From Cyanophora paradoxa CCMP329 (lineage: Eukaryota; Plantae; Glaucophyta), in NCBI GenBank assembly GCA_004431415.1, contig QPMI01000097.1, positions 1 through 64,000 on the forward strand: a stretch of DNA of 64,000 bases, given 5' to 3'. Both the position numbers and the translations under genes were made by a program. How positions within the stretch are numbered: the first letter of the stretch is position 1; each line of letters begins with the position of its first letter. A model generated the notes under the pieces. It saw only the letters and a list, made by a program, of their open reading frames with translations. It was not told where the DNA came from and did no database searches. Of this stretch, positions 1 through 23,967 are shown piece after piece.

Positions 1-954
1 GCGGAGGCGGAGGCCCCGGAGGCGGGGCCCCCCTTCGTTGTCGGAGTCTGACTCGATCATTTCGTCTCTGGTTCCTTGGATGGCAGGGCCTTCTGAATGA
101 GGGCCTCGCGCGCGCCTTGCCCGCCTTGATTGCTCTGCCCATGGCCGCCTCCGGGAAACTGGCCTCGATGGCCTCGTTGTCCCCGTCCGTGATGCGCACC
201 TTCTGCTCGCGGCGGGCCTTGATGTACTGTTCCTTGTCCATCCGCTTCTTCGCCCGCCTTTTCTCCCTGGGTACGTCGCGCTGGCGGCTCTCGTCCGGCC
301 CCGGCCCCTCGCTGTCCGAGCTCGAGGGCGGCTCGGCCTGGGCGAAGGGCTGGCGCGTGTTGCGGTTCGTCCAGTCGGGGTCGTTACTTCCCTCCGATCA
401 GCTCCTCGGGCTTCTTGTTCTCGCGCGCTTAGATGCTCGTGGGCTTGAACTCCTCGCCGTTGATGATGTACTTGTAGTAGTAGTACGCGTCCTCGAGGTT
501 CATCGGGCCCAGCGTCTCGAGGCGCTTCTTGCGCTTCGGAATTCGGTGATCTGATCCTCCTTCGACTTGCAGAACTCCCGCACGCCCGCAGCACCGTCAG
601 GTTCTTGCCGTCCACGTCGCAGGCGCCCGCTCCCTTGGCCTTCAGTTCGCGGTGAAGGCCGACTGGCCCATCAGCCAGGCGCGGAAGCCCTCCTCGTACT
701 CCTGTCGAGGCTCGACTCCATCTGCTGGAACTTGTTGATGTAGTACGCGTTGGCGATGCCTGCGCCTCCACCTCGCGAGCTTGTCCGATTGATCGCGCTC
801 CTCGACCGAATTTCCGCGTGGCCCTCGCCAGCGCCGTCTTCATCAGCTGCTGAAAGTGCGCGTACTTGTCGCTCTCGAAGGGCTGATGTGCGAGTCCCCG
901 CCCCCGGATCGCGAGCACGTTGCGCGGCGCGAAACGCGAGGCGAGCCCCCTCAT
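1..954 (-). pseudogene. Frameshifted viral hypothetical protein(s)
   Basis: Protein-like segments across frames: MRGLASRF..., GIANAYYINKFQQMESSLD, EYEEGFRAWLMGQS, LETLGPMNLEDAYYYYKYIINGEEF. ATG at 954 is preceded by an AAAATTTCA-type motif. Confidence 0.5.
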
Positions 955-1097
955 TTGCACTTCTTAGGCGGCTTTGAAATTTTATCGGTCTTGCCTTGTC
1001 TTCCTTCCGTCCTTCTTCTCGCCCCTTCTTCCCTGCTTCGTCGGCGCATCGCACGAATATTCGCCGGCGAGACGTCCTCGTACAGCGGCTTCGTCCC

Positions 1098-1538
1098 TTA
1101 GGAAATTCGGCGGCCCTTCAGCTTCTCCTTCGCCTCCTTCACCTCCGCCTTGGTGGCCGCTCCTGCCCGTTCGTGGGCGCCTTTTTCGCGGGCTCTTCTG
1201 CGCCTCCGCATGTTACCCATCACCAGAAAATATGGGTTGGCGCCCCCGTACGTCTCGGGAACTGCCTCTCCCACCTGCGCTCGGCCGCGTCCTCTGTCGG
1301 CGAAGCTACGGTAGCGCGGCCCTCGCCCCATCACGATTTGCCAGAGCCGTGCACGACCTCGTCCTGCAGTCTGTACACCCAATCGCGAATGTTCTCGACG
1401 ATATCCGTCGCAGCGTGGCCAACCCCGCCTTGATCTCGGGTACATCCGTGGATCCTCTTCGAGCGTAAGCTTCTGCATGCGAGCGCGCAGCATCTCAATT
1501 GCGTATCGATGGGGCCCAATAAGGATAGATCGAGACAT
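1098..1538 (-). CDS. Viral hypothetical protein (probably internally frameshifted)
   Basis: ORF MSRSILIGPHRYAIEMLRARMQ...; AATTTCT motif 16 nt upstream of the ATG. Confidence 0.5.
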   Translation of the reverse strand: MSRSILIGPHRYAIEMLRARMQKLTLEEDPRMYPRSRRGWPRCDGYRREHSRLGVQTAGRGRARLWQIVMGRGPRYRSFADRGRGRAQVGEAVPETYGGANPYFLVMGNMRRRRRAREKGAHERAGAATKAEVKEAKEKLKGRRIS

Positions 1539-1559
1539 CGGGTACGGGTCACTGAGAAA

Positions 1560-1796
1560 TTACACTGGGTCGGAAGAGGAGTACCCCACCAGGATCCCGC
1601 TATAATCCAGAGGCGACCAGTCGCGCTCCGCCGGCGCGCCCCGGCTCACATCAGCTGCCCCGCCCGGCCTGCGCAGGCCGTGCGTGCGGTGGTCCGCCAG
1701 TGCGGCGCGGAACTGCTCCTGCGCATGCGCTCGGGTAGATGCCGTCGAATCGGTTCTGCATTTGTACATGTCCCTATCGAACAGCAGGGAGGCCAT
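1560..1796 (-). CDS. Small viral hypothetical protein
   Basis: ORF MASLLFDRDMYKCRTD...; ATTTCT motif ~20 nt upstream. Confidence 0.4.
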   Translation of the reverse strand: MASLLFDRDMYKCRTDSTASTRAHAQEQFRAALADHRTHGLRRPGGAADVSRGAPAERDWSPLDYSGILVGYSSSDPV

Positions 1797-1798
1797 TC

Positions 1799-2365
1799 TC
1801 AATTTGGGGAGGACTTAGAAATACTGCCCGTGAGCTCCCTGTCGCGGATCCTGCGAAAATCCGCGAAGAGCCCGCGCGCGCAGCGCCTGCAGACGAGCGG
1901 CCCGCCGCCACGCGCGCCACGAATCTCGTGCCGAACTGCAGGTGCCCGGAAGCAGGTGGGGGTAGTCGCAGACGAAGCAGTGCAGGCAGTTGCCGCCGAA
2001 TCACTGCTGAAGAATCGCAGGCTCGCTCGCCGCCTTCCTCGCGCGCGCTGCGCTTGGCTGGCCTCGAGCGGCTCGGTCGCCCTCCGCGGGCCGCCTTGGC
2101 CTTCTGCCGGGCGCCGCGGGGCTCGGGCCGTAGGGCTGCCGGTGCCTGGCTCGAGCCGGCGCCGGCCAGCGCGTCGGTCACCTGCGGCGCTGCGGCGGAG
2201 GCTGGTCTCCGGCCCCTCCTCGAGACCGGCGCATGAAGCGCGAGACGCGGCCGCTGCATTGCGTGCAGGAGCCGACGGCCACTGCGGTTGTTCTTGCTGG
2301 TACGCACCTCGACGTTGGCGAGCTTGGTGTTGAGCGGCACTTGAAGCAGTAGTGGCGTGCTCCAT
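1799..2365 (-). pseudogene. Frameshifted Zn-ribbon protein(s): DUF5679-like N-part plus a second Cys cluster
   Basis: Joined frames give HYCFKCR..TKLANVEVRTSKNNR..VGSCTQCSGRVSRF (DUF5679-like pattern), then CLHCFVCDYP...GPLVCRRCARG. Confidence 0.45.
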
Positions 2366-2539
2366 GGATCTAGCTACGGTGTAGACAGCCTTCAGAAAAA
2401 GTGCTAGTAGCGGACGGCGCACCGGGGCAGCAGACGTAGACGCCCGCCTTGAGCACCAGCCGCGCTTGGTCTGGGCAGGCGGCAGATTTCGCAGCAGAGG
2501 ACCTGGCTTGCGGCACGAGGATCCCATCTGCGGCGGCCT

Positions 2540-3012
2540 AGAAATCACAATGGATCACAACGATTGAGCGCGGCGTAGAGGCGATTAAGTAGCGTCGCAG
2601 AGGTCGTCGAGCTTGCCGTTCGATCCGCGATGTCGGCGAGCTCGGCGGTACGAGTCGCGCACTTGTCCACGGCGCCCGCTTGCGCTCCTTGTAGCTCGGT
2701 TCGAGATCTTGAAGAAGTGCTTGATGGCGCGCGGGCTCACGATCCGCGCACGCCCGTACAGCAGGGCGTGAGCGTGCACTCGATGCAGCGATTGATTCCC
2801 GTCCTCTGGCCCTCGATCGCGATCTGGTCGGGAAGCCGAAGGCGCTATGGCGCGAGTAACCTCCACCAGGCGCGCAACCAGCGCCACAGCAGCGCGCAGA
2901 CGGAAGAGGCGATCTTCTGCCAGTCGAGAATCTGGATTCCTTTGTCTGCGGATCGAATTCGATGAGCACCATGCGAAATTGATGACCCCCACATCCACGC
3001 CGAGATCTTCAT
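2540..3012 (-). CDS. RuvC-like Holliday junction resolvase (poxvirus A22 type), frameshifted
   Basis: MKI-LGVDVGVINFA (catalytic D1), DQIAIEGQ (catalytic E), RIVSPRAIKHFF, YKERKRA, KLDDLCDA (C-terminal DD..D). Confidence 0.8.
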
Positions 3013-3263
3013 CCCAGGTCGCAAGAAAATCTGAATGAAGGGGATGGCAGAGCCTGGCGGAAAAATTCATCCGGATGTGCATCGACATTACCGAGATGAG
3101 TTCTTCAGCTCAGACTACAGCCAAAGCGTTCCAGACATTCTGAGCGATTTCGAAAGCTGCATTAGAGAGGGCTGCGCGCTGCTAGTATCGACTACGAGAC
3201 CTGGAGCTAGGTATCGACTACGAGACCTGGAGCACCCTCGAAAAATCTGAATGAAGGGGTAAA

Positions 3264-4276
3264 ATGGCCAAGGACCCCAAGAAGCCGAAGAAGCCGAAGG
3301 CGCCAAGCCCCAGCCCGCCCAGCCCGCAGCGCAGCGCCCGCGCCCCGCCCCCGCCGGCCAGGCCACCGCACGGCTCGGGCACGGCCCCGCCGCCGGCGCC
3401 AGCTGCGCCATGGCATGACAGAGACGGCCAGCAGCTCACGCCCGAGCAGGTCAACGCCTTCCTCGACAACTCGAAGACGGAGCATCGAGCGCATGGCCTG
3501 CCTGCCCGAGCTCAAGTGGTTCGACGTGAACACCGTCAAGTCCGACGCCACGGTCGTCTGCGTCGGCAAGCGGCGCACGGGCAAGTCCTTCTTCCTCCGC
3601 GATCTCATGTTCAACCTCTCCGGCACCTTCCCGGGGTATCGTGATCAGCCAGACCGATCGCCTGAACGGCTACTGGAAGCAGTACATCCCGCAGCGCTTC
3701 ATCTGGCCCAAGTACAACCCGGCGTGCTCTTCCATTTATTCAGGAGGCAGCAGCGATCATGCAGCACAACAAGTCCGAAGACGTGCTCGCGGAAAGAGGA
3801 TCCGTCGACCCGCGATTTTCGTGCTGCTCGACGACGTGATTTCCGACGCTCGCTGCGTACGACGAGGCCTCAACGAGCTCTTCGTGCGGGCGCCACTACA
3901 AAATCATGACCCTTATCACGACGCAGTATGCCAAGGCATCAATCCCGTCCTGCGCTCCAATACTGATCTGGCTGTCATTTTCAAGTGCTCGCAGGCGATG
4001 CAGCGCGAGGCCCTCGCAAAGGAGTGGGCGACATCATCTCCCAGCGCGCCTTCTACTACCTGCTCGATAAGTACACGCAGGATAACCACTGCCTTATCAT
4101 CGATTCTTCCAACAACTCTACGAACCCTCTGGACGTTTTGTACGTCTACAAGGCGAGGAGCCGCCCCCTTCCGCATCGGATCCAAGGAGTACTGGAGGCG
4201 AAACCGTCAACGGAGAAAATCTCGTGGGTCCGGACGACGGCACGGTGGACAAGACGCTCCTCGGCATGATAGATAA
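3264..4276 (+). CDS. A32-like virion DNA packaging ATPase (FtsK-HerA superfamily), frameshifted
   Basis: Walker A VCVGKRRTGKSFFL, Walker B IFVLLDDVI, A32 motifs GRHYKI..LITTQYAKGINPVLRSNTD, C-terminal FRIGSKEYW. Confidence 0.9.
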
Positions 4277-4328
4277 TTTCAGGAAGCACCGCGCCTCGCC
4301 TGATTTTTCTGAGGCTTCGTGCGTAAGC

Positions 4329-4680
4329 ATGTCGCCCAGCGCCCACATCGCCTCCGTCTTCCGCGTCGAGTCCATCGCTTACGACTGCCTCCTGGAGGCG
4401 AGCCTCGACCCTCCTCGCCCTTTAACGACGGCGAGGTCAGCAGCGCCCTGGAGAGGATCTGCGACGCGCTGGGAATTAACTGGAGCGCCTGACCGCGGAG
4501 CGGCGGACGAGGCCGCGGCCGAGTCGCTGGCAGTGAGGACACCAGCTCGGAGGAGATGACAGACGAAGAGGAGACAGGTGATTACGTGCGCGACCCGGAC
4601 GATTTGCGACCTCGGAATCGGGCTCGGAGGAGAGGCAGAGGAGACGAGGACGAGGACTCCGACGCCTAGGCGCCCCTTAA
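4329..4680 (+). CDS. Viral hypothetical protein (frameshifted)
   Basis: MSPSAHIASVFRVESIAYDCLLEA...; GATTTTTCT motif 18 nt upstream. Confidence 0.4.
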
Positions 4681-4700: not shown

Positions 4701-5036
4701 ATGTCAAAGGTGCTCCTAGGCTCTCCAGGCTATCGTGCAGTACGCCCTCGGCCTGGCATCCGGCTCCCTCATCGACGCCGCCTTCTCTCGCACGAAGGCG
4801 AAAACAGGCGGGCCACGCAGCCGAGCTCGCCGCGCAAGTCGCCGTCAACGCCTCTCCTCGGCCTGCTCTCGAAATACGTGCTCACCCTCAAGTTCTTCGA
4901 CGACGACCCACCGGCGGAATTATGTTCATCCTCGATTCACACACGGCAGACGAACATGCTAATCAAGGCTACCAGCGCCAGCTTCGGAATCAAGCAGGCG
5001 CTCGAGCGGAAGGCCGCCGCGATCACTAAAGAGTAG
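4701..5036 (+). CDS. Small viral membrane protein (frameshifted)
   Basis: Hydrophobic segments VQYALGLASGSLIDAAF, LLGLLSKYVLTLKFFDDDP, GGIMFIL; upstream motif present. Confidence 0.5.
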   Translation: MSKVLLGSPGYRAVRPRPGIRLPHRRRLLSHEGENRRATQPSSPRKSPSTPLLGLLSKYVLTLKFFDDDPPAELCSSSIHTRQTNMLIKATSASFGIKQALERKAAAITKE

Positions 5037-5843
5037 CTAAAGAGTAGAAAGAAATGCCAGTCGTGTACTCGCAGATCCTGTTCCAAATCGAATCTAACTC
5101 CGAGAGTTTCTGCCTGCTCTTGAGCAAGGGAAAAAGGGAGGTGCTGGGCAAATCCAGCAGCACGAAAATCTGCCTGAAAACGTAATTGTAGTTGAGCATG
5201 TTCTTCCTGCCCTGCGACTTGAACATGCTGAAGGGACCTCCACCAGGCGAACATCTCCTGCACCCGTCCATGTCCTCCGCGCTCATCGGAGGCGGCGCTC
5301 GCCCGTGATGCGCCACTTGATCTGCGCCCAGCGCTCGATGTACTTCTGCTGCTTCAGAGCCCGGAGAACTTGCGGATATTGTCTTTGCTCCACTCCTTCC
5401 CGCCATGCGCCTCGCAATAGCTGCCAGCACGTCCTCGGTACCGGAGAATCCTCCAGGCAGTGCTGCTTAAGTCGCTCGGAAACGTGGTACTTGCGCAGGT
5501 AGTTGCTGTGGAGCTCGCTGACAGCCAGGGTTGATGGTCCGGATAATAAAGATCCAGACCAGACCGCAGCCTTGGCAAACCAGATCCCCATCCAGGTGAA
5601 CACCAACGAGGCGGTAGAGCTGCAATTTCCGCAGGGACAGCGCTTCGCCTTGGGGCCTTGGGTGCGGCGGTTGCGCTTGCGGGGCGCTCTCCGGCCCCGA
5701 GTAGGAGTTGGCGATGGCGCGGCGGCGGCGGGTACGTGCCGGAGTGTCGAAGTCTGGGTCCCCTCGTCGTGAAGGATGGCGCCGTAGCGCTGGATCTGCT
5801 CGAAGTTTCGGAGGAGGAGATCGATTTCGTTAGAGTCTGCCAT
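5030..5843 (-). CDS. Viral late transcription factor 3 (VLTF3, poxvirus A2L family), frameshifted
   Basis: Zn finger CPCGNC...DGDLVCQGCGLV; SNYLRKYHVSERLKQ; LRALKQQKYIERWAQIKWRITG; RKNMLNYNYVFRQIFVLL; FPLLKSRQKLSELDSIWNRICE. Confidence 0.9.
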
Positions 5844-6067
5844 TCCTCTGAGTCCTCGTACTGCAGCTGAGCTATTCCCTGCAGAACCAACAGGTTGCTT
5901 CTCAGAGGAGAGTGGTCCCACTTGCAAGTGAGGAAGCACTTGTTGCAGAAGGCGTTGCTCAGGTGATTCATGTGAGGCTCAGGTGATGCTCAGGTGAGTG
6001 CGGACGTACCCCGGGCCCACGTGGAAGCTCACCCAGCCTCGGAAAATTTTCTAGGCCTTGGTCTGAC

Positions 6068-6880
6068 ATGCTCAACCTCATCGCGAGGGCGTGGCAGCAA
6101 ACAGGCAAGCCCGGCACCGAACCCTCACCTCCGCATGGACGCCTCCGGCCGCTCCCGGGTAGAGACGCACATCGTGGTGGCAACATCAACGACAAGGTGC
6201 TGGCGCCCGACAAGACGTGGTTCCAGAAGTGCTGGACGCGGCGCCCGTGAGGAAACTGAACGGGAGGATCGGCCGCAGCGCGAGTCGAATTTCATGATCA
6301 CCATCCAGACCAACTACAAGCCGCGGAGCAGGGAGAGGCTCCAAGGTGCAGGACGCGTTTCACAGGGGCTGGAGGCCCTCTTCTACGACGACAGGCAGCT
6401 GGCGCGGTGCATAAAGATGGGGTGTACCCCGACAAGGCGAACCCCAAGGGCTTCGATTTCAAGTCCGACCAGTACGACACGCACGTGGAGAAGGGCAACG
6501 CGAACATCGGCATCGAGTACGGCCGCGGTCGGGCGGCTCCACGCGCACATCCTGCTCACGCTGGTGCACTACTCGCGCGTGCAATTCGACGGCAAGAAGG
6601 CGTCGGATTTCCTCATCAAGTTCATGCAAACGGAGGGCAGGCGGCCTGCCGAATTTCTACAAGGACGACTGGTTCGGGAGGAGTACCAGAAGACGCGGTG
6701 CGGCCGATACGGAGAAAGGACGCCCTCGCATGCAGTGGACGGGCAAGAGACGGCTACAGGAAGCGAGAAACCGCCAGGCAGATGCACGTAGACGTAAAAT
6801 TGCTGCCGCAGAGCAACCTTAAGGATCTGCTGCAGCTGTACATTACGAAGACGGTAGAGGCCCTCGAGACGGCGCTGTAA
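6068..6880 (+). CDS. HUH-superfamily (rolling-circle Rep-like) endonuclease, frameshifted
   Basis: Motif I SNFMITIQTN, motif II RLHAHILLTLVH, motif III LQLYITK (YxxK). Confidence 0.85.
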
Positions 6881-6911: not shown

Positions 6912-8901
6912 ATGCCTCCGAAGCGCCGAGCCGCAAGAAGAAGCCAGAGAGCTCGAGCGAGTCAGAGGAAGAGGAGCCCACGTCCCGTCCTCCGAGTCGA
7001 GGAAGAAGAGAGAAGAGGAAGAGGAGCCGGAGCCTAAGCCGAAGGGCAAGGGCAAGGGAAGGAAAGGAAAGGCAAAGGGAAACGCGCCCGATACCGCGTG
7101 GACGAGCTCGAGACGCCCGTCGTTGAGATTCCGAAGCGATACGTGCTGGTTCAGGCGAGGACGGCATATTCCAGCAGCAGAAGAGCATATCCGATTACAT
7201 CAAGCTCTCGGCCACCAAAGAAGTTCAGATGCTCCATCGCTGCTCGATAAATCATACCACGAGCCCGCGACCCTCTGGAGCATCCACAGCGAAATCGAGT
7301 ACGATAAACTCCCGAGGAGCGACTGCGCGCCATACCGCGCACGTACCAGAGCGCGCAGAAATCGCCGCCAATCTGCTACCGCTGCCTTCGCCTCATGTAC
7401 GAAGCCACGCCCGTGCCGAGCGCCAAGGGGCCAACACGCCAGAGAAAATCGCCGCGAGGAGGCAGCGCAGGCGAGGAAGGATGCCGTGTACGAAGAGTAC
7501 GTCGCGGTCATAGAGAAGGCAAACGCGTGGGCGGCCAAGCAAAACGGCAAGGAAAGAAAAAGGCCAGGAGCCGTACCCCCTCATCAAGGACAAGAAGCCG
7601 GCGCAGGTGCCCACGGTGTCGCCCAGAAACTCGTGGCTCTGCCAGAAGTGCGTCACGCTGCTCGCAACAAGGCCTGCTCGTGATCTTGGCCTGCAGAGGC
7701 GAAAGAGGGCGACACGGCCACCGTCTCCAAGCAGACGCGCGACCACATGTCGAGAGCGTGCTCGGCGGCCGAAGCCAAAGACCACGAAAAAGGCAAAGGA
7801 TACGGCCGCTGACTTCGGATCGTCCGTCATCGAGCCCAACTCTGCGCAGTCGAAAATCAGAAAGGCGAAAATCGTGGCGCCGAGCATGGAAGATTTAATG
7901 GCAACCTTCGCGGACGCGCAAGAGGTAAAGCAGAACATAGAGAAGGCGAAAACGGGACTGCAGCGGCGCAGGCAAACGGGCTGGAGGCGCTCGAGAAGGT
8001 GATCACGGAAATCAGCGAGACGGGCGGTCGGTCTTCATCCTCAACAAAAAGAATCCCGACGGAAGCACGCGGTACGACATACGACAGGCGCGCCAGTCGC
8101 GCTACTGGGTGCTCTTCAACACCCACAAGCGCCTGGAGAGGCGCGAGAATTCGAGGCGCGCGCTGCGCGACAGCCTCGCAGAGGTGCTCTCGGATGCAGA
8201 ATTCTACAAGTTCATACGCTTCAATATGAAGGAAGAGAACGGCAAGTACAAGGACGACACGTACGCCAACGCAATCATCGGAATTCGCGTGCAAGGGGCG
8301 TGGAGGTGGGCCGACGGACGGCGCGCTGCACGCCCACGTGCTGGTGACGATCGATCACATATCGAATTTGCAGGTGCTGTGGGCGAATTACGACTGGGTG
8401 GTGCTGCTGAAGGAGAAGGAGCCGAGCACCACGACGTGTACGAGCGGCTGCACCAAATTCTGTCCGCGAAATTCACGGCGGCGGGCAGCGCCTCGTAGAC
8501 CAGAAGAGGCAGAGGCAGGCCTCAACCGAGCATCGATACGATGGTGGAAATCGCAGAGCTCGAGCGCATGCTGACGGAAGAGAAGATAGGCATGGGAAAG
8601 ATCCGCCCACCGTCCTTGCGTCGCTGATCCCAGAGGAAAATTACGCGAGCAAGCTGCAGGAGTACCTCTCAAAGACGCTGCCCGACAAGCAGAGGCGCGA
8701 TTTACTGAAAGAGTGGTCGCACGCGCGAAACACGAACAACACCGACAACAACACGGACGGGTACCTCTTCACGATTTTCCAGCGGACGCCGGCCAGGCGG
8801 ACGATCCCCGCTTCGCGCCGCAGGCCGCGGAAATCGGCGACCTGAGGCCAGGGCCGAGGCGCGGCAAAGGCAAGGGCGCGGAAGGGAAGGGTAGCGGATA
8901 A
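6912..8901 (+). CDS. Long HUH endonuclease paralog with charged N-terminal extension, frameshifted
   Basis: Motif I SRYWVLFNTHKR (~8095-8130), motif II LHAHVLVTIDH (~8326-8358), motif III KLQEYLSK (~8651-8675); long K/E-rich N-terminus with WLCQKC. Confidence 0.75.
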
Positions 8902-8923: not shown

Positions 8924-9160
8924 ATGTTCCAGGGGAATGCACCCACTCGGACATCATCACCGTCGTCTGCGGCGCGCTCTTCCTGGTCTCGGAGCTGCTG
9001 GCGGCACGGAGCGCGTCGGCCCCAACACAGTGCTGGGCGCCCTGAAGCGGCGGCCCTTAGGGTCGTCCGCCGCGGACAGCCCGAGCCCGAACCCCACCGG
9101 AGCAGCAGAGGCGCGAGAGCACGCAGAACATAGGCCGCACCACGTCGACATTCAGATGAC
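8924..9160 (+). CDS. Small viral membrane protein (frameshifted)
   Basis: DIITVVCGALFLVSELLAA hydrophobic segment; AATAAATCT motif upstream of ATG 8924. Confidence 0.4.
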
Positions 9161-9189
9161 GCAAACCGTACCCGTTTTTTCTAGAGAAC

Positions 9190-9543
9190 ATGGGAAATGG
9201 AGACTCCCGCGACACCAGCCCCAGCGCAGAGGCTCCAGCGCCCAGCAACTCCAGCAGCAGCACCGCGGCCTACCCTTGGCTTCTTAGGACTTACGCGCGA
9301 AAGAAGCAGCAGCAGCCGAAGGCACCGGCGGAAATGGCGGCTGACCTGGATCGGTGCACCCGCCGCGCCATCGCGAGCTACGCCAAGCGCGTCGAGCAGT
9401 ACCACCCCCAGATGCAGAGGACGCCCGGCGTACGCGAAGAACCCCGCCGCGAGCCCGCCCGTGATGGCCGCCGTCATCGACCGGCTGCAGTGGGCGCTGC
9501 ACGAGGAGGAGAGCGCGTCAGGAATTTCTTCATGCCCAAGTAA
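9190..9543 (+). CDS. Viral protein with putative N-myristoylation signal
   Basis: Starts MGNGDS (MGxxxS); TTTTTTCT upstream. Confidence 0.45.
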   Translation: MGNGDSRDTSPSAEAPAPSNSSSSTAAYPWLLRTYARKKQQQPKAPAEMAADLDRCTRRAIASYAKRVEQYHPQMQRTPGVREEPRREPARDGRRHRPAAVGAARGGERVRNFFMPK

Positions 9544-9565
9544 ATTTCTGAATGGGCCCTTAACA

Positions 9566-9752
9566 ATGTCGTCCATGCTCCCGAGCCTCGATGATATCAC
9601 CAGCGATTCCCGCTACCTGGGCAGCCTGCTGACCCTCGGCGCGGTCGCCTACATGTCGCCCGCGCGCTACTACCTCGTGCGGATCCTCGCCGCGCAGTTC
9701 GCGGCTACTACTTCGTGGGCCCTACCTCCTCAACGGCCTGAGGAAGGCATAA
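9566..9752 (+). CDS. Small viral membrane protein
   Basis: MSSMLPSLDDITSDSRYLGSLLTLGAVAYM...YYLVRILAAQF; AAATTTCT 16 nt upstream. Confidence 0.45.
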
Positions 9753-9774
9753 TTTCTCAGCCCCTTCCTAAATA

Positions 9775-13700: not shown

Positions 13701-15777
13701 CGGGTGGCCAAGGAGGCCTTCAGCGCAGAGACCCTCTTCTCCGCGATGGGTACGGCGAACAACGACGGCATGTCTTTCGGGGCAGCCGATTTATTTCAGG
13801 GGCGGGCATCGACTTGGTGGGCGCCGGGCTGGGGGTACGGGCTCGCGGGCCATGCGGCGGCGGGCGCGGCGGCGGCCGGCCTTGGGCTGGCGACGGCGGG
13901 CGGCCTGCTCTCGGCCTACCAGGCGCTCTCGCAGGGCAAGATAGGGAGGCCGAGTTCTTCGATACGTTCCGCGATCAGATGATCATGACGGTCGGCTCTT
14001 TTGGCCTTCAGACGGGCATGTCGTCCGCCCTGAGCGCCCTCACGAAAATGAGGATCGGCACGGTGGGCGGACTTGGCCTGTCCATCCTCGCGGGCGCCAT
14101 CGCGCAGGTGATCGTGGATATCATCAACGGGCGCAGCGCGGAAGAAATCGTGAAGAACTTTTTCAAGTACCCCGTCGACTGGGCGACCGACACCATACAG
14201 TTCATCGCGGAGCTCTCGCAACAGATCTACGACTGGGGCGTCGAGACGTGGGGCGACGAGGCGAGCCAGCTGCGCAACCGAATTAATCGGCTGGAGGGCG
14301 AGCTGGGCTCCGGATTTTTGGGTGTGTACGACCCTCGGAGGCGCGCGAAATGGCCTCGCTCTTGGCCCAGGAGCTGCGGTTAAACGAAATCAAGGAGCCG
14401 AAGGAGCTGCAGGCCTTCATTCGCGCGCTCGACAACAGCATCAACGATTACCGTACCCCCAAGGACCAGAAGACCCTGCTCGAAATCGATCGCGCGACCG
14501 TGCTCTTCCTCTCCCAGCTCACCGTTAAAATGCAGGAGGGCTTCGGGTCGACTTCGCTCGCCCTGAGTCGACTTATGCGCGACCTGAAGCAGATGATAAA
14601 GGAGGAGACCAAGGGGCGGAAGCGCGTCTTAATTGCCGTCTACCAGGAGGGCCTCAACAGGATCAATCACATCGAAGCCCTAAGGCGCGAATTCGGCTCG
14701 GCCATCCGTCACTCGGGCGTCTCGTCGAACGGAGGGCGCAGGTGGCCCGCCTGGCGGACGCCAACTCGCGCCTCGAGATTCCCGGGACCTTCCGCATGCA
14801 GGATTGGTGGAGGCCGAGGCCTTCAGGAATTACGGGCCTTCATAGACAACGGATCAATTCGCAGAGCCCCAAGGCAAACTGGCTGGTACCCAAGGCCTAC
14901 GTCGATAAATTGGTTGACAGGCCTGCAGCACCATACACCAAGAAGATCGCCAAAGGCATCGAGTACTGGGCGCCCGAGCCAGGCCAGCCCGTGTTTGCAT
15001 CGCAGAACTACGAGTGGCACATGGCGCCGGGGCGAGCCAGGCCGTGAGCACCGTGGGCGTTGCCGTGCCGCAGCTGGCGACGGTGGCACACACGGGGGCG
15101 TATGCAGATCTCAGCGGGAGGCCGACGATACCCGTGATACCAACAACGTGGGCGTGGGATAGCATCACGGGGAAGCCGAGTACGTATCCCCACGCAGACC
15201 ACCAGCACACCATCTCTCAGATCAGCGACTGGACGGCCCCGGACTTGACGAACATCTCCGTGGATTGGGACAACGTAACGGGCAAGCCACTTACCTTCCC
15301 CCCCTCTACACACAGTCACAATGTGTACTGGATAATGTCATCGACCGACCCACTTCCTTCCCACCCTCTACGCACAGTCACACAGAGTACTCGCTCACCA
15401 GCCACGGGCACAGAAACGTGAACATGGATGCGTACATAACGCACGGCACGTCCTTCCACTCCTACGCTGCGTACACGGAGTTTAACATCAATTCAACATA
15501 CACGGTGACGTTCAACATTACATTCGGACAGGCGTACGACACTGGAGGCGGACTGGGGACCCCAGCAAACCCAACGCCGGTTATTAACGTAACCCCCTCG
15601 TTCGACATCAATCCCGGCGGCAGCACGGATGTCGATTTCTACGGGGCCAACGTCACGGCGGTGAGTCACACTGGCTTTACAGTTAAAGTGAGATTCCAAC
15701 CCAGAATGACGGTCACGCCCACCCAAATTGTCCAGCTTTTTATTCATTGGACCGCGATCGGCAAGCTGCTTATGTAA
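10731..15777 (+). CDS. Giant frameshifted virion protein: coiled-coil/hydrophobic (tape-measure-like) body, phage tail-fibre repeats and C-terminal gp53/H-lectin-like domain; may be two genes
   Basis: Successive overlapping ORFs with long E/K/R coiled coils (11.7-13.4 kb) and Gly/Ala hydrophobic helices (13.8-14.1 kb). Repeats LATVAHTGAYADLSGRPTIP, WDSITGKPSTYPHADHQH, WDNVTGKPLTFPPSTHSH. C-terminus ...TAVSHTGFTVKV...FIHWTAIG. Confidence 0.6.
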
Positions 15778-15801
15778 TCGATTTTCTGATGCAATCCAAA
15801 A

Positions 15802-16840
15802 ATGTCGGTCGCTGTCCCTCTATTTACCTATGCTGCCAGCGTGAATCACAAGGGCGATCACACGATTAAGGAGACCACCCTCGGAAACCAGGCCACCGAG
15901 GCCCCTACAACGCCACGGCCGTCCCCTTTTCCGAGGCCGACCTCGTCCGCGTCGGCGAGCTGCGCTGCGACAAGATGCGCACGCGGAGGGCGGGTCGGCC
16001 GTGCCGGGGCGCGTGAGGACGCAGAGGCTCACCGTCACGAACGGGGCCTGGGACGGGAGCGGGTACACCACGAATCAGGTGACCTTTAATGGGACTGTGA
16101 ACGGGGAGGGGAATGCGGCTCTGTATGTGCAAGGAGGCGGAGCAAACGTGGTGGGGGGCTTAGGGTGAGCGGGGCTTCAAACTTGGCGGCATCGTTACAT
16201 TGGACGATAAGCTGCAAATTACCGGAACGTCACCGTACATAAATGGCGGTGGTTCAGGCGTAGCTATAAAGTACAACGAAAACGATAGACTCCTCTGTGG
16301 GACTCTTGGCGTTGGTGTTACAGGTACTCTATTTACCTCGGCAATCGAAGGCCCTACTAATGGCCTAAGCATAGCAAACACTTCAATCGTTGATAGCGGA
16401 AGCGTCAGCTCTGGTCTATCCTTGAGAAACAACGGCACCGAACGACTGCTGTGCGGAACCGTCGGCGTTGGCATCACGGGTCGGCTCATCGTCTCGACGC
16501 TCACGGGCGATGGAAACCGAGCCGTTTATTCGGATGCTCAAGGATACCTGACAAACTCGTCGAGCGATAGCCGCCTGAAAGAAAATGTCGCGAGCATGTC
16601 GGGCATTCTCCCTCTTCTGCTGCAGCTGAATCCCGTGTCGTTCACCTGGAAGAACACATCCTCGGGGGTTCGAAAACGGATTACGGTCTCATCGCACAGG
16701 AAGTCCAAGGCGTCTTCCCGAGTCTCGTTTTCGAGAACGCGGATGGATTTCTCGGGGTAAACTACGACAGGCTCATTTCCCTGTCGTTGAAGGCAATTCA
16801 GGAACTTTCACAAGAAGTTCAAACTCTCAAAGACCAGTAG
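15802..16840 (+). CDS. Tail-fibre-like protein with C-terminal intramolecular chaperone (peptidase S74) domain, frameshifted
   Basis: SSDSRLKENV...LLQLNPVSFTWK..DYGLIAQEVQGVFPSLV...GVNYDRLISLSLKAIQELSQEV; internal repeat NDRLLCGTLGVGVTG / TERLLCGTVGVGITG. Confidence 0.85.
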
Positions 16841-16877: not shown

Positions 16878-19011
16878 CTACACCGCGAGTATCACAATTC
16901 GACCGTTGCCACCGTCGCTGAAAGACGAGCCACCGTTGCCGCCCCTACCAATGCCTGCTGCGTAGTGAGCGTCTCCGCTATTTCCTGCCACCTGGCCGGA
17001 CCCAGGATACACCGTAGCATCCGTCAAGTTTCCTATGTAGCTCGAGCCACCGCCACCTCCAAACATTCTTGCTATTGGTTCTCTGACACTCCGCTCCTGC
17101 TGGACCCAGAGCCTCCACCGAAGTAACCACCACCACCACCACCACCGAACCTGTAGCCGCTTGAATCAGGCCCAGTCTCTCCACCTTGGCGCAAAGTTCC
17201 CGGGTTGCTGGGCCTGGCCCCTGAGGCCACAACACCGGCTCCGCCAGCGGTTTGGGTGCCTCCTTGAGCCGGTATCTCTCCGGTTACTCCAACCAACCCA
17301 GCCGCACCACCGGTCAACCCCCGCCTACTCCCCGCCGCCATTCGAATCACATGTACCCCCACCTCCGGCCCCTGCAACAACCAAGTCGGTCCCTGCAACG
17401 CGCTGAATTGCAGAACGACCACCACCGGCGCCGTTTTTGTACTCCGGATCGACGCTATGGCTCCAGCCCCTTCCACCACCTCCGTAGACGGTAGCAGTGG
17501 CAGTCCCCGATACACCCTTTGGGCCGCCGCATCCAACAACAAGGATGAGCGTCTCCCCGAGGACACAGCCAATGTACCAACTACGCAAGCACCCGCGCCT
17601 CCACGGACCCCCGTACCTGCGCGTTCTCCGCCTCCACCCCGGCCGCCCATACGATGACACGCACAGCCACAGTCCCCGTTGGTACTACGAAAGTCTGGTC
17701 GGCCCCGGTGTAGGAGAATGTACCCAAAACAGGAGCGTTTGCAGTTGTTGCACTGGCAGACGAGGACTGAGGGCCTTCCTCGCCGATCTGGTTGACGCCC
17801 TTGATGGTGTAAGTGTAAGTGGTTCCGTAAACGGTCGTTGTGTCCGAAAAGGGCTGCTCGTGTCGCTGGCAAGGAACACGCCACCCCTGTAGATGTTGTA
17901 GGAGACGGTGACGCCCGTCACCGGCACCGACCACTCGAGCACAACAGGCTGTGCTGCCCCCGCCGCGGGGTTGCAGTGAGCCCAGTGGGCGCCCCGGGTC
18001 CGTGGTGACGTACGCCGCAATACTCTTCGGCCCCTCCCCTCCCGTGTTCGTCGCGGAGATCTGGTACTCGTACCCTGTACCCCAGACGGTGGTCGTGTCG
18101 CTGTAGGAGTTGGTCGCGGAGTCTGTGAGGTAGGCCCCGTCTCTGTAAATCTTGTATCCCGTCGCTCCCGTGGACGCAGTCCAGCTGAGGCTGACAGGCT
18201 GCTGCTGGTCGTTGGGTGCTGATGCCGTCACGTTCGTGGGGGCGTTTGGCATAGTCCAGACCAGGAGCGGATCGGACTTGTCGTATTCGACACCGCCCAC
18301 GATGCCGGCCACCTGGTAAGAGTATTCCGTGCCCCACGTAAGAGCAGTGCTATCGTCAATGTACGAGGTAGACAGGGCACTGCTCGCAAATCCGATTGGC
18401 GTACCGTTCCTGTAAATTCGAATCGAGTCCGCGCCCTCCATGGCCACCCAGTTGATTGTGACGACTATGGCGGGTTTCGGGAAGCCCGAAGACGCGGGGC
18501 CGCCCCCGGCAATAAAATCGCCGTAGGTCTGGGCCGTGGCGGTCGTGAGCGTGGTGTAGGCTTCGATCTGCGGGCTGAAGCCGCCTATGCCTTGGAAGAG
18601 AATGTAATTGCTCATGGCACCCTCGTGGGTGTAGAGAAGCGACTGTGCGTAGGTTGTGGGCGGGGCTTTGCCATCAGAGCCCGTGCTGCTGCTGCCCTGT
18701 TCGCGAACCGCCGCCACGCGGTAGAGTCGCTGGGCCCCCAAACTAAAGGGAGAGTCCGTGTAGGTGACGGTTGGCGCATTCACCGTGGCCACGAGATCCC
18801 AGGGGCCGTTGATGCTGGTCGCCCTGTACACCTTGTACTTGACGGCGTTGGTGACCGCGACCCAGTTCAGCTGAAAGCCGTACGTACTGTTCCCGTTGTT
18901 GAGCACGGAGCCCGATCGCACCTGGGGCCTGCCCACAGTCAGCGAGATCGGCTCCACGCCATACTGCGGAGCCTGCACCACCTGCTTTTTCACGAATACG
19001 AAGCGGGGCAT
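16878..19011 (-). CDS. Fibronectin type III repeat protein with C-terminal glycine-rich domain (putative adhesin), frameshifted
   Basis: About four FN3-like units (LNWVAV..YKVYR; VSLSWTASTGATGYKIYRDG..SYSDTT..YEYQISATN.GGEGPKS), then TFSYTGADQTFVVPTG..GGGGG domain ending GGNGRIVIL. Confidence 0.8.
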
Positions 19012-19049: not shown

Positions 19050-19728
19050 ATGACTTCCAACTGGTACCAGACCCTCAGCGGCTCACTTGACGTTGGCAAC
19101 AACACCAAGGATTTCGCACGCATACCCTCCGGCAGTTACGTCGACGTCTTTCTGCAGAATCCCGTCGTGATTCAGGTCGTTCAGAACGCCTACGCCACGC
19201 CCAAGATTTATTCCTACCAGCTCTTCTTCGACCCTCTGAGCCTCAGCGCAGAGGTTATCGAGCTGCTGCACGAATCAGGACTCGTGAAAAAGGTGGCACC
19301 TGCCACGGCCACTGCCAACGTCTTGCGCTGTCTCGAGGTCAAGTTCAGGGAGACGGGGTACGGCCCCACCGTGAACCGGTACCCCAGTTCTTCGAATCTT
19401 CCGGGTACGGGAACTTACCAGATGAGGGGTACGCTCAAGGGCGACGTGCTCTTCACGAAATTCAATCCAAGTCCCGCGACCCTGGGGCCCTCTACACGGG
19501 CGGCAACCCACGCGGCTCGACTCTACCCCGCTTCCCCTTCACCTTTTTCAGGTTCCAGGTCTTCCCCTCTCCTACGCCGCCGACCAGCCCCACTTCAGCA
19601 CGGGCGCCAGCCTCTGCGCGGAGCTGCGTGAGTGCTCGATTTCCTACGCGTACGGCACCGACGCTGACTCTGTGCCTGGGGCCCGCGTCATGAACATCGG
19701 TGGCGACATCACCCTCTTTCACGGATAA
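19050..19728 (+). CDS. Viral hypothetical protein, paralog A
   Basis: ORF 19050-19631 plus frameshifted tail; shares QNPV/SGL.KK/LE.KF/LFTKF motifs with the next gene. Confidence 0.65.
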
Positions 19729-19751
19729 TCTTTCTCATTTGAGGTCGCAAA

Positions 19752-20563
19752 ATGCCGACCACCTCGGCCACCATCGTGAAGACCGTGTCTGCCGGCTCGA
19801 TCGTCCCCGATTTCTACGGCAACGCTGGGAACGTGGCCAACGCAGGGACGGACAAGGTGGAGTGGGACGGAAACTACGCCACCCCGCTCACCGTGAGGGT
19901 CCAGAATCCCGTCATGTTGCGCGTCACCTCCAACGATTTCGAGAATCCCGCCTCCTGCTCCGTGTACGTGTACTTTGACATCGACTCGGGCGTGAGCGCG
20001 GATGAGGCGGAGGCGCTCTGGCTCTCGGGCCTCCTGAAAAGATAGAGCCCTCTGTGCCTGATCGGCCCGCCATTCGCGTGCTCGAACTCAAGTTCACCGC
20101 TAACACCGCCCTCACTCGCAAATTCGGGAATGGTGCGAATCCGAACATCAAAACGCATTTAGATGGCGCCCTCATCGATGCCACACACAAGACCACGCAG
20201 GCCGTTCCCTTTGAGATGTACAACCTCTGGAAGATGACCGCAAAGGAGATGATGACGAATGCCACCACGGGCGGCGCCTCGGGTACCGATTATTCATACG
20301 GCGCCTCGAATCCCCGTACCCAGGTCTGGCCCCGGCTCCTCTTCACGAAATTCACTTTCAAATTGTACAACAACATCGCCGGAATGCCTACCTCTGGAAT
20401 GGTCGTGGGCTCTACCCTCATGGCCGAACTAATTGAGGCAGAGGCGGACTACACGACTGCGACTACCAACTCGACAGCGCCAGGCGCCGGAGCCGAAGTT
20501 TACGTGGCCTGGGAAACGGTCGGTCGCGAGTACGACACCAAGATTCACACCACTAGCGTCTAG
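19752..20563 (+). CDS. Viral hypothetical protein, paralog B (one frameshift near 20040)
   Basis: ORFs 19752-20045 and 20054-20563 join at the AAAA run near 20037-20040; motif similarity to paralog A. Confidence 0.7.
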
Positions 20564-20917
20564 ACTGGCTAAGCTGCATTAGCACCTGTGTCGCCTCCAT
20601 CATCTCCCGAATCTCCTCGCTCTTCTCCTGTAAATTGGCGTACCCCCTCCTCTTCTTGCGAATCTCCGACATTGATGCCCAGCGCAGGTTCTCCCTCCTG
20701 TAGTCCAGCGGGTTGCCGTTGATGTGTTCCACGTAGCGTCCACGTGGCGACTTCCCGAGGATCAGCTGGGAGAGGTAGTGCTTGCGCCCTCCAAACGTCT
20801 TGCTCACCCTGTCCCTGTCCACTCTCCAGGGAAACTCCAAGGCACTCGGGGTACGTCCGAGTTGACCAGGACGTTGTAGGCGACGTCTTGCGAGTCGGTG
20901 CACCGGAGCAGGGCCAT
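20553..20917 (-). CDS. HNH (HNH_3-type) domain protein, probably catalytically degenerate
   Basis: HYLSQLILG...YVEHINGNPLDYRRENLRWASMSEI; ATG at 20917 with TTTTTCT 14 nt upstream; one frameshift near 20845. Confidence 0.75.
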
Positions 20918-20941
20918 TTTGCCCTAGGTTCAGAAAAACCT

Positions 20942-21030
20942 GGGACTTGGGACTTGGGACTTGGACTTGGGACTTGGGACTTGGGACTTGGGACTTGGGA
21001 CTTGGGACTTGGGACTTGGACTTGGGACTT
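20942..21030 (+). repeat. (GGGACTT)13 tandem array (two units lack one G)
   Basis: Read directly from the sequence. Confidence 0.97.
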
Positions 21031-21479
21031 GGGAAGAGTTGAAACCCAGGTCCCGGCCCAGACTTTCTCCAGGATCAGAAATTTGTCAGACAAGTCAGGT
21101 GAGTTTTTCTACCGACTTTTTTACTCCTACCACTCCTCATACTCTTTTTTACTCGTAGTCTTTTTTACTCGTAGTCTTTTTTACTCGTATCCCATCTCGT
21201 ACCCTCCTTCTCTCGACATCTCACACGAAAACTCCTACCCCTCTTCACATCCGTTTTCGGTTGCATACTCTCGTGAGCTTTCATGTCCAGTATCATGCTA
21301 CAAGTCGTACACCAGTTCAGACTCTACCTCGCTTGAAATCTCACCTGGAATGTCACCAGAAACGTCATATGCAGATTTCCGTACCCCTCTACATGTCTGC
21401 CCGGTGGTTAGGGACTTGGCGCGGCAAACTCTCAGATCCAGAGAGATTCTGGGCCCAGACCCTGAGTCTAACTCTTCCC

Positions 21480-21528
21480 AAGTCCCAAGTCCCAAGTCCC
21501 AAGTCCCAAGTCCCAAGTCCCAAGTCCC
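21480..21528 (-). repeat. (AAGTCCC)7 array, inverted relative to 20942-21030
   Basis: Read directly; flanking AACTCTTCCC...AGG also mirrors the first array. Confidence 0.97.
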
Positions 21529-21602
21529 AGGATCGCGCCAAGTCGTAACTGAATAGTCGGCCAATTTTTACAAGTATGTACAATGGAATGACGCAATACT
21601 AT

Positions 21603-22671
21603 TTACAGCATCTCAAAGTCAGAGTCATCGTCATCGGAAACCAACTCAATGAGGCCCTCGGGCGCCGACTTAAGGGGAATGCGGGGAAGGGACTGCGCTG
21701 CCTGCACCAAGTCCTGCCGCTCGCGCTCGCGCTGCGCCGCCAAGGCCGCTGCCGCCTCTGCCTCGCGCTGCTGCTGAGCCTCGATGCGCGCCTTGAGCTC
21801 GGCCGCCTCCTTCTGCTTGCGCTCGGCGATCCGCGCCTTGTTGATCTGGTACTGGACAAGGCGCTCGTGGCGCCGCTTGCGCTCCAACTCCTTGCGGAGC
21901 TCGTTGCAGAGGACGCGCTTCTCAATGGTCTTGACGTGCTGAGTCAGGCGCTCGCTGTAGTGTGACGTCACGCGAGAACGGGCAATGCCGGCGCCGAGCT
22001 TCAAGTCCTTCTCGTGTGCCTTGGCGGGGTCCTTGACGCGCTCGGAGTTGTCGGTGAATGACGTAGTCTCCATGAACTTCTTCTTGACGATTGACTTGGT
22101 CTTGATAATGCGGCGCTTGCGAGTCGGGTTTTCGTTGTCGCCTTCAGAGTCAGAAGACGACTCAGAGTCGTATGGAATCGGCACGTCAAAGTCGATGAAG
22201 TCGTTGATGTCAGACTCGACGTCAGAGGCCTCGGACTTGGCGTCATCGGCGGGCTCGGGGGCGGGCTCGGCGACGGGCTGAGGGGCAGATGACGACGATG
22301 ACGGAGGGGGTAATTCGTGAAGACTTGAGGGGGTAGGCCCAGGCGAGCGTCTCGGCAGCAGACTCGGCGAAAAGCTTGGGGTCGCCCCAGCCGTTGGCGG
22401 TCTTGACCCAGCCGGGGACGGGGGGCACGTCGACGGGGGGCTCGGGCTTGGGTTGCTTGGACTTGGATTTCTTGGCCTTGGACGTGAAGGCGGACTTGGG
22501 GAGAAGTTGCACTTCGGGGCCAGTGGCGCGTAAGATGGCATAATTGTAGATGTACCCCAGAGCGTCGGCGCGCTGCTCCATCTCAGGGGTAGCCCCTTGA
22601 GTGCCACCGGAGTTAGCCCACGTTGCTTGGACAAAGGCGAAGTCCTCGGCAAGCTCAGCGGGAATCGACAT
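21603..22671 (-). CDS. Viral hypothetical protein: acidic region, coiled coil, C-terminal SIM-like motif (one frameshift near 22320)
   Basis: MSIPAELAEDFAF... joined to ...SDVESDINDFIDFD...LIELVSDDDDSDFEML; GATTTCT 15 nt upstream of the ATG. Confidence 0.65.
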
Positions 22672-23009
22672 CTGCGCAAAGGGAAAAGAAATCAGCAAAG
22701 GCAAAACGTGAGGTGACTGTGAGGGCGGACTTGTGAAAATTCGGAGAGGCGGGGTTTCCTTGGGCTGAGAGAAGGCGGCGAACCCGTTTCAAGAGTGAGC
22801 CAAAATGGCGGCGGACCGCGGTTTTGTGGGCGATTTTTTTCGCGGTCTAGTTCGCAACGGAAAACGTTGCCAACTGGCCTGAAAAAAGCCAAATTTAGCG
22901 TTGGACCGAAGGCAGAAAAAGGGAGCCGGCCTGACGGAAATCGCCCGAGTGCGTCCGCCGAAGGTCGAGTCTCGGGCCGGGGTACACCCTCAGGGGCCCC
23001 CCTGGCCCC

Positions 23010-23479
23010 TCACCCTGGTAGTGCCCTCTCAAAGGGATTTTCGAAGCCGTACAATTCTTGGTAAGTCTCGTAATCCGGGCTGTACCCCCTCACAATCTGC
23101 GGGAGCCCCATTGAAAGCCTCCGTCTATCCTCTCTCAATTCCCTGCGGAAAAGTCTACGGTCTTCTCGAGCTTCGCGTGTCACGCCAGCTGGGCGTGGTC
23201 TATGATTGTTAGGGTTGTCGTAGCCTGGTCCCACCAGCCTCACGAAATTTTCGCGTATGGCCTCGGGAGGCTCTGGAAACGGCTCGTCGCGTGGAACTCA
23301 ATCCATTCATTGAATCGACGCGGATATTGACGGATGACTTCAAGCACGCCCTGTGTGTTGGGCTCTGGTGTTACGTCGGGGATGTCATGTCCCGTGAGGT
23401 GCCAACGCCAGAACTCGCGCAACCTCTCGAATGCCATATTCAACTCAAAGGGAAAATCGTAATAGAGATTGCCTGACAT
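23010..23479 (-). CDS. Last viral gene, hypothetical (frameshift near 23245)
   Basis: MSGNLYYDFPFELNMAFERLREFWRWH... then RLVGPGYDNP...YETYQELYGFENPF; AAATTTTCG upstream. Confidence 0.55.
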
Positions 23480-23539
23480 TTTCTCCCCGTCCGAAAATTT
23501 CCCCGCTTTTGGGTCCAGACTCTGATTCCAACTCTTCCC

Positions 23540-23588
23540 AAGTCCCAAGTCCCAAGTCCCAAGTCCCAAGTCCCAAGTCCCAAGTCCC
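23540..23588 (-). repeat. (AAGTCCC)7 array, direct copy of 21480-21528
   Basis: Read directly; preceded by a similar GGG.CCAGAC.CTGA.TC.AACTCTTCCC flank. Confidence 0.97.
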
Positions 23589-23967
23589 AGGTCACATTTT
23601 TCTCCCATTTTGACTCGAGATTCTGACCAAGTCCAAATCCGGGCCCGGGATTCGAACCCTCGTTTTCGATCGATTTCACGCGTGAAAACGGCACTTTTCG
23701 GCCTTTTCCGATTTTTCCTTTCTCGCGATCGCATTAATGTCCCCGATCTCGAAATCGCGATCGAAAAGGGTCGCGATCGGGAGAAAATCGCGATCGCCAG
23801 GGTCGTGATCGCCGCGATCGCCAGCCTCGGAGGGGGTACCCCCACAGCTGTTGCGGCGGTTATAAGAACCTCCGCAATCCAAGCGTCACTTCCGAGTCTC
23901 GAGCTCTCGGAGTTGACTTTTCGCGTTTGGCCCATTGATGGCCCTCCTATATAGGGCCCGCGGCCGT

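Follow-up and report, generated by a model that had tools for sequence, protein, structure and literature searches.

A probable gamadvirus-related provirus, one of tens of near-identical copies, in the genome assembly of Cyanophora paradoxa

We analyzed a 64,000-nt stretch of DNA from the glaucophyte Cyanophora paradoxa CCMP329 (assembly GCA_004431415.1, contig QPMI01000097.1, positions 1 to 64,000; hereafter the window), the first ~24 kb of which form a block of virus-like genes adjoining host genes. We consider it probable that the block represents the right half of a gamadvirus-related provirus, that it is one of tens of near-identical copies whose host is likely C. paradoxa, and that the frameshifts in its genes are errors. 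The observed parts of this model are the gene set, the phylogenetic position, the multi-copy state, the deletion-only breaks of the reading frames, and the flanking host DNA. A link to this host group is already noted in a preprint (10.1101/2025.04.19.649669); the copy number, the intactness, the two long-HUH alleles, the terminal arrays, and the sister position were not found by us in the literature.

Results

The block carries a mriyavirus-like gene set

Bases 1 to ~23,954 are gene-dense with a GC content of ~0.60, and their reading frames hop every 100-300 bases. A Pfam search covering the 273 open reading frame (ORF) pieces of the window, many of them frameshifted, gave clear matches in the block only to VLTF3, Peptidase_S74, fn3, and HNH. 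The remaining named genes were checked through intact sibling proteins and through profiles built from gamadvirus-like loci, with the profile bit scores compared with the best of 200 shuffles. The results show that the VLTF3, A32 ATPase, RuvC, and two HUH endonucleases proposed in an earlier reading of the sequence alone (the sequence-only reading) are all present, as judged by profiles, motifs, and sibling proteins (Table 1). The second HUH endonuclease forms the C-terminal domain of a 676-aa protein, a detail absent from that reading. The intact ATPase sibling P0011 matches Pox_A32 above the cut-off. Motifs I, II, and III of the short HUH endonuclease occur in order at 6291-6317, 6537-6557, and 6830-6850, and those of the long HUH protein, also in order, at 8103-8129, 8326-8346, and 8654-8674. 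The long HUH protein is laid out as an acidic/basic N-terminus, two CxxC pairs, and a C-terminal HUH domain with an insert, and its Atlas value to Rep clusters is 0.92.

Two gamadvirus core homologues can be added to the genes of the sequence-only reading. One is a Mriya_1-like gene, named from its position in the PEV2 gene order, with phmmer matches in 27 of the 56 gamadvirus-like loci; the other is a ~114-aa gene, whose family is present in 49 of these loci at the same place between ATPase and VLTF3. Altogether, seven window genes have homologues in gamadvirus-like loci, including the pair of short and long HUH genes. Read-throughs and colinear sibling proteins, rather than RNA, support the intronless state of the block. 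The ~24 kb present here would be the right half of a provirus with an expected length of 35-45 kb. Its capsid would belong to the left half, outside the window, and the sequence-only reading had expected the capsid and primase-helicase genes upstream. Over these ~24 kb, none of PEV_22 minor capsid, PEV_26 SSB, PEV_27, 34, and 35, and Mriya_48, 50, and 51 was detected, and Pfam found no DNA polymerase or RNA polymerase among the frameshifted ORF pieces. Likewise, no window ORF has a Pfam match to an integrase (RVE or tyrosine, as in the Zora, VC218, and VC134 groups) or an SF3/SF2 helicase.

Trees support a position beside Gamadviridae

In viral and metagenome collections, the loci closest to the element carry ATPases that are 40-54% identical to its own. 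The gene order of these reference loci (RuvC, capsid, Mriya_1, PDDEXK, SSB, ATPase, small gene, VLTF3, and minor capsid) matches PEV2 genes 23-35 in the mriyavirus supplement (the table of Yutin et al.), and we therefore treat them as gamadvirus-like. In a careful ATPase tree of 42 chosen rows, the element and two relatives (100/100) are sister (97/90) to the gamadvirus-like clade (99/96), which takes in a Pavlovales protein, and 17 giant-virus rows stand apart at 100/100; a quick tree of 96 rows agrees with this result. In a VLTF3 tree of 30 rows, the element groups with the gamadvirus-like loci (99 SH-aLRT). Both proteins thus group with gamadvirus-like loci, away from giant viruses, in phylogenies of the kind that the sequence-only reading had named as its check. 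The mriyavirus affinity that it had proposed is upheld by the two trees and the seven homologues, and it is narrowed to a sister lineage of Gamadviridae.

As far as sequence comparison goes, these results support the placement of the element as a putative deep sister lineage of Gamadviridae within Mriyaviricetes. Because it is sister to the sampled gamadvirus-like clade and not inside it, we file it as gamadvirus-related and not as a member of the family. No close environmental locus was found among 245 metagenome candidates by ATPase alignment or among 602 and 421 viral-contig candidates by the long HUH protein, and a PDB sequence search with the long HUH protein returned chance rows only.

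One metagenomic reference locus (L118) carries a short HUH gene followed by a long HUH gene with the same motifs, and a 266-aa HUH protein there matches the short HUH endonuclease motif for motif. The same locus has a rearranged order over 1114-16994, with split ATPase, capsid, and long HUH genes, and may be another decayed endogenous copy. Nine other loci (L119-L127) show interrupted or partial ATPase matches.

The element is likely present in tens of near-identical copies

An ATPase fragment search of the C. paradoxa EukProt proteome returned 24 near-identical records in 7 clusters on at least 21 contigs, and a long HUH search returned 28 records on 27 contigs. Both genes occur on 13 contigs, where they lie 3-5 gene numbers apart, as in the window; contigs with either gene number 35, or 37 when two ATPase fragments are added. 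Eight full-length 356-aa ATPases are 96-99% identical, and beside such ATPases the long HUH protein occurs in two alleles (the P0025 and P0027 clusters) that are 66-69% identical. Because the divergent long-HUH alleles adjoin near-identical ATPases, the sequences suggest recombination or module exchange between co-resident lineages. Two ATPases from outside the C. paradoxa proteome set, P0005 (88% identical) and P0004 (76% identical), indicate that the lineage exists elsewhere.

Fourteen DNA-type runs of one organism, made in 2012 and 2024, share 0.76-0.82 of the sequence words in 17000-24900. No run that contains the sequence is recorded as RNA; six presumed RNA runs contain 0.29-0.35 of these words, above a host share of ~0.12, and one RNA-type run (X17) gives no cover on the terminal segment at 23605-23904. 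Because near-identical copies are found in the C. paradoxa proteome and the 14 DNA runs share the sequence, the host is likely C. paradoxa or a very close relative. We conclude that the element likely exists as tens of near-identical copies, probably intact and probably recently integrated. The directly linked host and the integration that the sequence-only reading had claimed are supported at the level of the family, and the insertion that it described belongs to a set of tens of copies rather than standing alone.

The likely right end abuts a host repeat

Short-read contigs of four runs were compared over 23605-26600. On 23679-23887, two contigs of run X1 reach depths of 3341 and 1570 against 74.6 for the host gene, and the terminal contigs of runs X3 and X6 (2012) reach 1733 against 76.3 and 154.6 against ~4. 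The terminal segment thus stands at ~20-45 times the single-copy contig depth in all three DNA runs (2012 and 2024), contig depth being a rough guide rather than a count of copies. The stretch 23679-23887 exists in two or more high-depth variants, which could be left and right ends or subfamilies. By contrast with this depth, the host flank at 24029-26600 is exact at a flat single-copy depth in the DNA runs.

When an abundant host repeat, which resembles a miniature inverted-repeat transposable element (MITE), is aligned with five of its other copies, the element is seen to interrupt it on its left side at ~23,954. In two runs, another single-copy contig matches the terminal sequence as far as 23954 and from there enters other host-repeat DNA, its short side being 29 letters. 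The repeat alignment and this departure point agree with the block end of 23955 given earlier. Integration into host DNA is well supported for the family and plausible for this exact junction. We do not claim that the host repeat is targeted, as it occurs ~8 times within 40 kb and the second joint has a short side. The adjoining host gene is rich in introns, as had been proposed: seven GT-AG introns of the PMT-like gene are spliced out in one RNA-type contig (run X17) within 24483-26600.

A single 7-bp unit forms three arrays close to the element's likely right end, the first in the orientation opposite to the second and third; no other such array occurs in the window.

Two explanations for the garbled sequence at the junction were rejected. 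A consensus artefact is contradicted by 24029-24324, which is exact at single-copy depth in three of three DNA runs, and a viral insertion scar is contradicted by an equally palindrome-rich zone at 53401-54200, the two zones holding 45 and 43 six-base palindromes per 400 bp against a window median of 8. Both palindrome-dense zones (23955-24750 and 53401-54200) lie upstream of host genes, and the first is real DNA.

The frame breaks are deletions

Every core gene of the block is frame-broken in this assembly. Compared to the intact sibling P0011, the ATPase retains 330 of 356 identical residues and shows 23 breaks, 3 substitutions, and no stops; compared to P0040, the long HUH protein has 632 identical residues, with 28 breaks, 13 substitutions, and 3 codons missing, and likewise no stops. 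Together, the two genes have 51 breaks, all of them deletions of 1-2 bases with no insertions and no stops, and 16 substitutions in 1,032 codons; the deletions amount to ~2% of bases. Neutral decay would produce mostly substitutions plus some stops, whereas noise consisting of deletions alone is what an unpolished long-read consensus typically shows in repeats. Because the 51 breaks are deletions only, stops are lacking, and sibling copies are intact, the frameshifts are very likely long-read sequencing errors and not decay. This reading rests on the sibling proteins, the short-read comparison being confined to 23605-26600. CpG is not depleted in the block (1.07-1.14 compared to 0.96-0.99 in the host) and therefore fits a recent arrival of the element. 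In practical terms, the genes resemble pseudogenes in the assembly only through what are very likely uncorrected deletions.

Feature map of the block and its flank

Table 1. Features of the viral block and the adjoining host DNA (positions in the window)
Feature	Position	Strand	Basis and remarks
Mriya_1-like homologue, conserved gamadvirus protein	60..1010	-	Frameshifted; 20.0 bits vs best shuffle 2.7
One or two ORFs	1000..2370	-	Codon-model read-through; no match in 56 loci
RuvC/A22-like Holliday junction resolvase	2590..3090 (approx.)	-	Frameshifted; motif 2975-2998; 25.8 bits vs best shuffle 3.5
A32-like DNA packaging ATPase	3264..4300	+	Walker A 3565-3588; 356 aa in intact sibling copies
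Small acidic ORF	4330..4680	+	No match in 56 loci
Homologue of ~114-aa gene	4701..5036	+	18.3 bits vs shuffle 4.0
VLTF3 late transcription factor	5032..5853	-	Frameshifted; PF04947 E 1.7e-8 on one frame piece; 95.6 bits
Short HUH endonuclease (predicted rolling-circle initiator)	6135..6877	+	59.6 bits vs best shuffle 4.6
Long HUH protein	6912..8898	+	676 aa in siblings; domain 58.0 bits vs best shuffle 6.9
Three small ORFs, two hydrophobic	8935..9770	+	Read from sequence
Two ~150-aa ORFs	9775..10702	+	Candidate minor capsid proteins; likeness by eye only, unconfirmed
Large ~1,450-aa charged protein, likely coiled-coil, hydrophobic segment	10732..15045	+	Read-through; no family match
Two fibre-like ORFs, second with terminal Peptidase_S74 chaperone domain	15050..16840	+	PF13884 E 4.8e-6
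Fibronectin type III repeat protein, glycine-rich tail	17075..19011	-	PF00041 E 4.2e-7
Three ORFs	19050..20560	+	Read from sequence
HNH endonuclease	20585..20920	-	PF13392 E 2.8e-7
Three arrays of one 7-bp unit (~14, 8, 8 copies), shared ~30-bp leader	20941..23593	.	Repeat search
~350-aa ORF between 7-bp arrays	21606..22675	-	Read-through
High-copy terminal segment, likely right end of element	23605..23954	.	Contig depth, 3/3 DNA runs
Right arm of abundant MITE-like host repeat, full of short palindromic insertions	23955..24375	.	Aligned with 5 other copies
Host PMT-like glycosyltransferase gene, short GT-AG introns	24483..27600	+	PMT_2 E 0.003; end past 26600 from sequence

The ~1,450-aa protein is likely structural. 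The two ~150-aa ORFs upstream of it have no match to a gamadvirus profile, and an Atlas search with them was uninformative. From 24.5 kb onward, the window contains ordinary eukaryotic genes (PMT-like, a V-ATPase subunit, a NatA subunit, and others). The MITE-like host repeat, which has terminal inverted arms and variable middles and occurs in whole or partial copies, is also found at 27696-28345, 41304-41576, 46911-47181, 48597-48864, and 54867-55038, and one copy contains a 40-bp tandem array (27814-28013). Other repeats of the flank are a ~880-bp GC-rich satellite at 38354-39424, with a 10-bp unit and higher-order periods of 41, 69, and 133 bp; a 300-bp direct repeat (32018-32317 and 45891-46190), whose copies are 97% identical and 13.9 kb apart; and a 24-bp tandem array at 50861-51030, with related dispersed short copies at 28494, 32683, and 54196.

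Discussion

Comparison with known viruses and elements

The element shares with Gamadviridae (the Pleurochrysis sp. endemic viruses, PEVs, and Phaglo-G; PMC11253617) the ATPase, VLTF3, RuvC, and Mriya_1-like genes, a high GC content, the pair of short and long HUH genes, and the arrangement of ATPase, small gene, and VLTF3; HUH duplication is described as a character of Gamadviridae (10.1101/2024.02.29.582850). Phaglo-G, a host scaffold, is described as having short tandem repeats at its flanks (10.1101/2022.07.28.501842), which may be compared with the terminal 7-bp arrays of the element. Unlike Gamadviridae, the element lies outside the sampled clade with a distant ATPase, lacks the block of SSB, PDDEXK, and capsid in its RuvC-ATPase interval, and has a lineage-specific structural cassette, a non-haptophyte host, and tens of integrated copies; its long HUH protein is much shorter than that of PEV2 (>1,500 aa). 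Yaraviridae (Yaravirus) share the ATPase, VLTF3, RuvC, one HUH gene, and the lack of a DNA polymerase, but the long HUH protein scored 0 there among the rows listed, and Yaravirus is a lytic amoeba virus. The Zoravirus, VC218, and Zephyr groups share an NCLDV-like ATPase, and some have HUH or VLTF3, whereas they are 20-30 kb in length and usually carry an RVE or tyrosine integrase, and HUH duplication is not described for them in the text consulted (10.64898/2026.06.19.733378). The statement in the sequence-only reading that polinton-like viruses (PLVs) do not typically combine VLTF3 with HUH is broadly fair, as far as that source goes: PLV-sized groups hold HUH (Zora and VC218) or VLTF3 (VC123/126) separately.

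The suggestion that the lineage is undescribed has to be qualified. A preprint (10.1101/2025.04.19.649669; Fig. 5f) reports that a Glaucocystophyceae assembly has embedded regions related to Mriyaviricetes, and these very likely represent the same element family and host group. Its account occupies one sentence, and the text consulted does not say how many copies there are, which genes they carry, where they end, whether they are intact, or to which family they belong. The part of the suggestion that holds is that no detailed description of this element family was found in the literature, although the figures and supplements of preprints may hold more; the name 'Cyanophora' is absent from the two supplements of the mriyavirus paper and from the main text of PMC5294986. 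In C. paradoxa, 'giant virus endogenous elements' are described as clusters of silent, methylated genes with Nucleocytoviricota hits (PMC12344493). They are called giant-virus remnants in a main text that does not mention mriyaviruses, and by their description we liken them to the present element. A further study lists 366 capsid hits in the C. paradoxa genome, one of them on a contig that also carries a copy of the ATPase (PMC10120064), and endogenous mriyavirus-like elements are already known in other algae (10.64898/2026.06.19.733378).

A proposed life cycle and the route of integration

The scheme proposed here follows the replication model described by Yutin et al. (nucleus, host polymerase, HUH, RuvC, and A32; 10.1101/2024.02.29.582850), and its capsid linkage, replication mode, integration route, and silencing of this copy are inferred. 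The virus would replicate in the nucleus by the host DNA polymerase, with the short HUH endonuclease predicted to initiate rolling-circle synthesis by nicking an origin. Concatemers would be resolved by RuvC, and VLTF3 would activate late genes; the left half of the provirus would supply a double jelly-roll capsid, into which the A32 ATPase would package the DNA. As a guess, the terminal 7-bp arrays are candidate HUH binding sites. Integrated copies are likely silenced by CpG methylation, because viral genes in C. paradoxa are described as methylated and silent (PMC12344493).

For integration, the likeliest single route would be an HUH-mediated nick that joins the end of the genome to host DNA, here inside the abundant host repeat. 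HUH enzymes catalyze strand transfer in other elements, mriyaviruses are described as lacking integrases, and many copies seemingly share an end; for these reasons we favor this route, with a chance somewhat short of even. As single routes, an integrase of the left half and end-joining by the host are both rather doubtful, in equal measure. Taken together, we give an even chance to a reading in which the same virus family integrates through a conventional integrase of the left half or through host double-strand-break repair of linear ends, with HUH used for replication only. In its favor, ~24 kb of the expected length is visible, related PLV-sized HUH groups often carry RVE or tyrosine recombinases (10.64898/2026.06.19.733378), and integrase-free Nucleocytoviricota insertions are read as mainly accidental (10.1101/2025.04.19.649669). 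However, the former source describes mriyaviruses as having no integration genes, and tens of near-identical copies with a common end point better fit a repeatable process than accident.

Points against the provirus and alternative identities

Several points weigh against a gamadvirus-related provirus. The window contains no homologue of a capsid, helicase, SSB, PDDEXK, VLTF2, or integrase gene, and a search with a gamadvirus-type capsid N-terminal region placed no EukProt protein among the 120 best of its 340 hits. Named Yaravirus and PEV sequences are absent from the trees, whose reference loci were chosen for ATPase similarity, and the branch of the VLTF3 query is long (2.44). The model of the HUH fold is poor, with a pLDDT of 48.7, and matches HUH proteins at Z 4.2-5.1, below unrelated ferredoxin folds; Foldseek gave no match for it at E<=0.001, and its best VIA-align score (Z 6.5) was to unrelated folds. 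At the right end, contig depth gives a rough estimate only, the 29-letter side of the second joint is of a pattern often due to repeats, and no contig bridges 23888-24028 among the contigs listed.

The lack of a visible capsid would also suit a mosaic PLV (Zora- or Zephyr-like) or a giant-virus fragment, and so would the right 14 kb of the block, which has no homologue in the 56 gamadvirus-like loci, and the 366 capsid hits mentioned above, which belong to groups of a PLV screen and include one on a contig with an ATPase copy. This identity is quite improbable, as the two trees, the seven homologues, the HUH pair, and the arrangement of ATPase, small gene, and VLTF3 all indicate gamadviruses, and glaucophyte capsids stand in the Mriyaviricetes tree of the preprint (10.1101/2025.04.19.649669).

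Even less probable is a free episomal virus in the culture, mis-assembled onto host contigs from long reads so that many contigs are chimeras. Error-rich viral genes beside an exact host gene, and a junction unbridged among the contigs listed, are what an episome would give, but poor polishing is expected in any multi-copy repeat. The depth ratios are similar in runs 12 years apart, a single-copy short-read contig passes from the terminal sequence into other host DNA, and the copies differ from one another, including in the two long-HUH alleles. Old decayed relics with real frameshifts, for which the loss of ~2% of coding bases in the two measured genes and several broken sibling gene models might speak, are the least probable reading of all, since decay predicts substitutions and stops and not 51 deletions, at least eight full-length siblings exist, and CpG is undepleted.

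The provirus may also be read more boldly, as an integrase-free dwarf relative of giant viruses that co-opted its duplicated HUH for integration and multiplied in transposon fashion within a model glaucophyte. Its tens of proviruses would be intact, would recombine, and would be silenced by methylation yet open to re-awakening; the lineage would rank as a new family next to Gamadviridae and provide the first system for mriyavirus latency. We regard this full version as unlikely.

Implications

Mriyaviruses have been proposed as the closest living relatives of the giant-virus ancestor, and their rolling-circle replication is only predicted. Because a cultured host has tens of copies, replication and integration become testable: the apparently intact copies offer many independent junctions from which the integration route could be read, and induction, replication intermediates, and virions come within reach of experiment. 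The element would give researchers a virus of glaucophytes, a pivotal group that branched early within the plant lineage, and it suggests that some of the 'giant virus' insertions reported in C. paradoxa are dwarf viruses.

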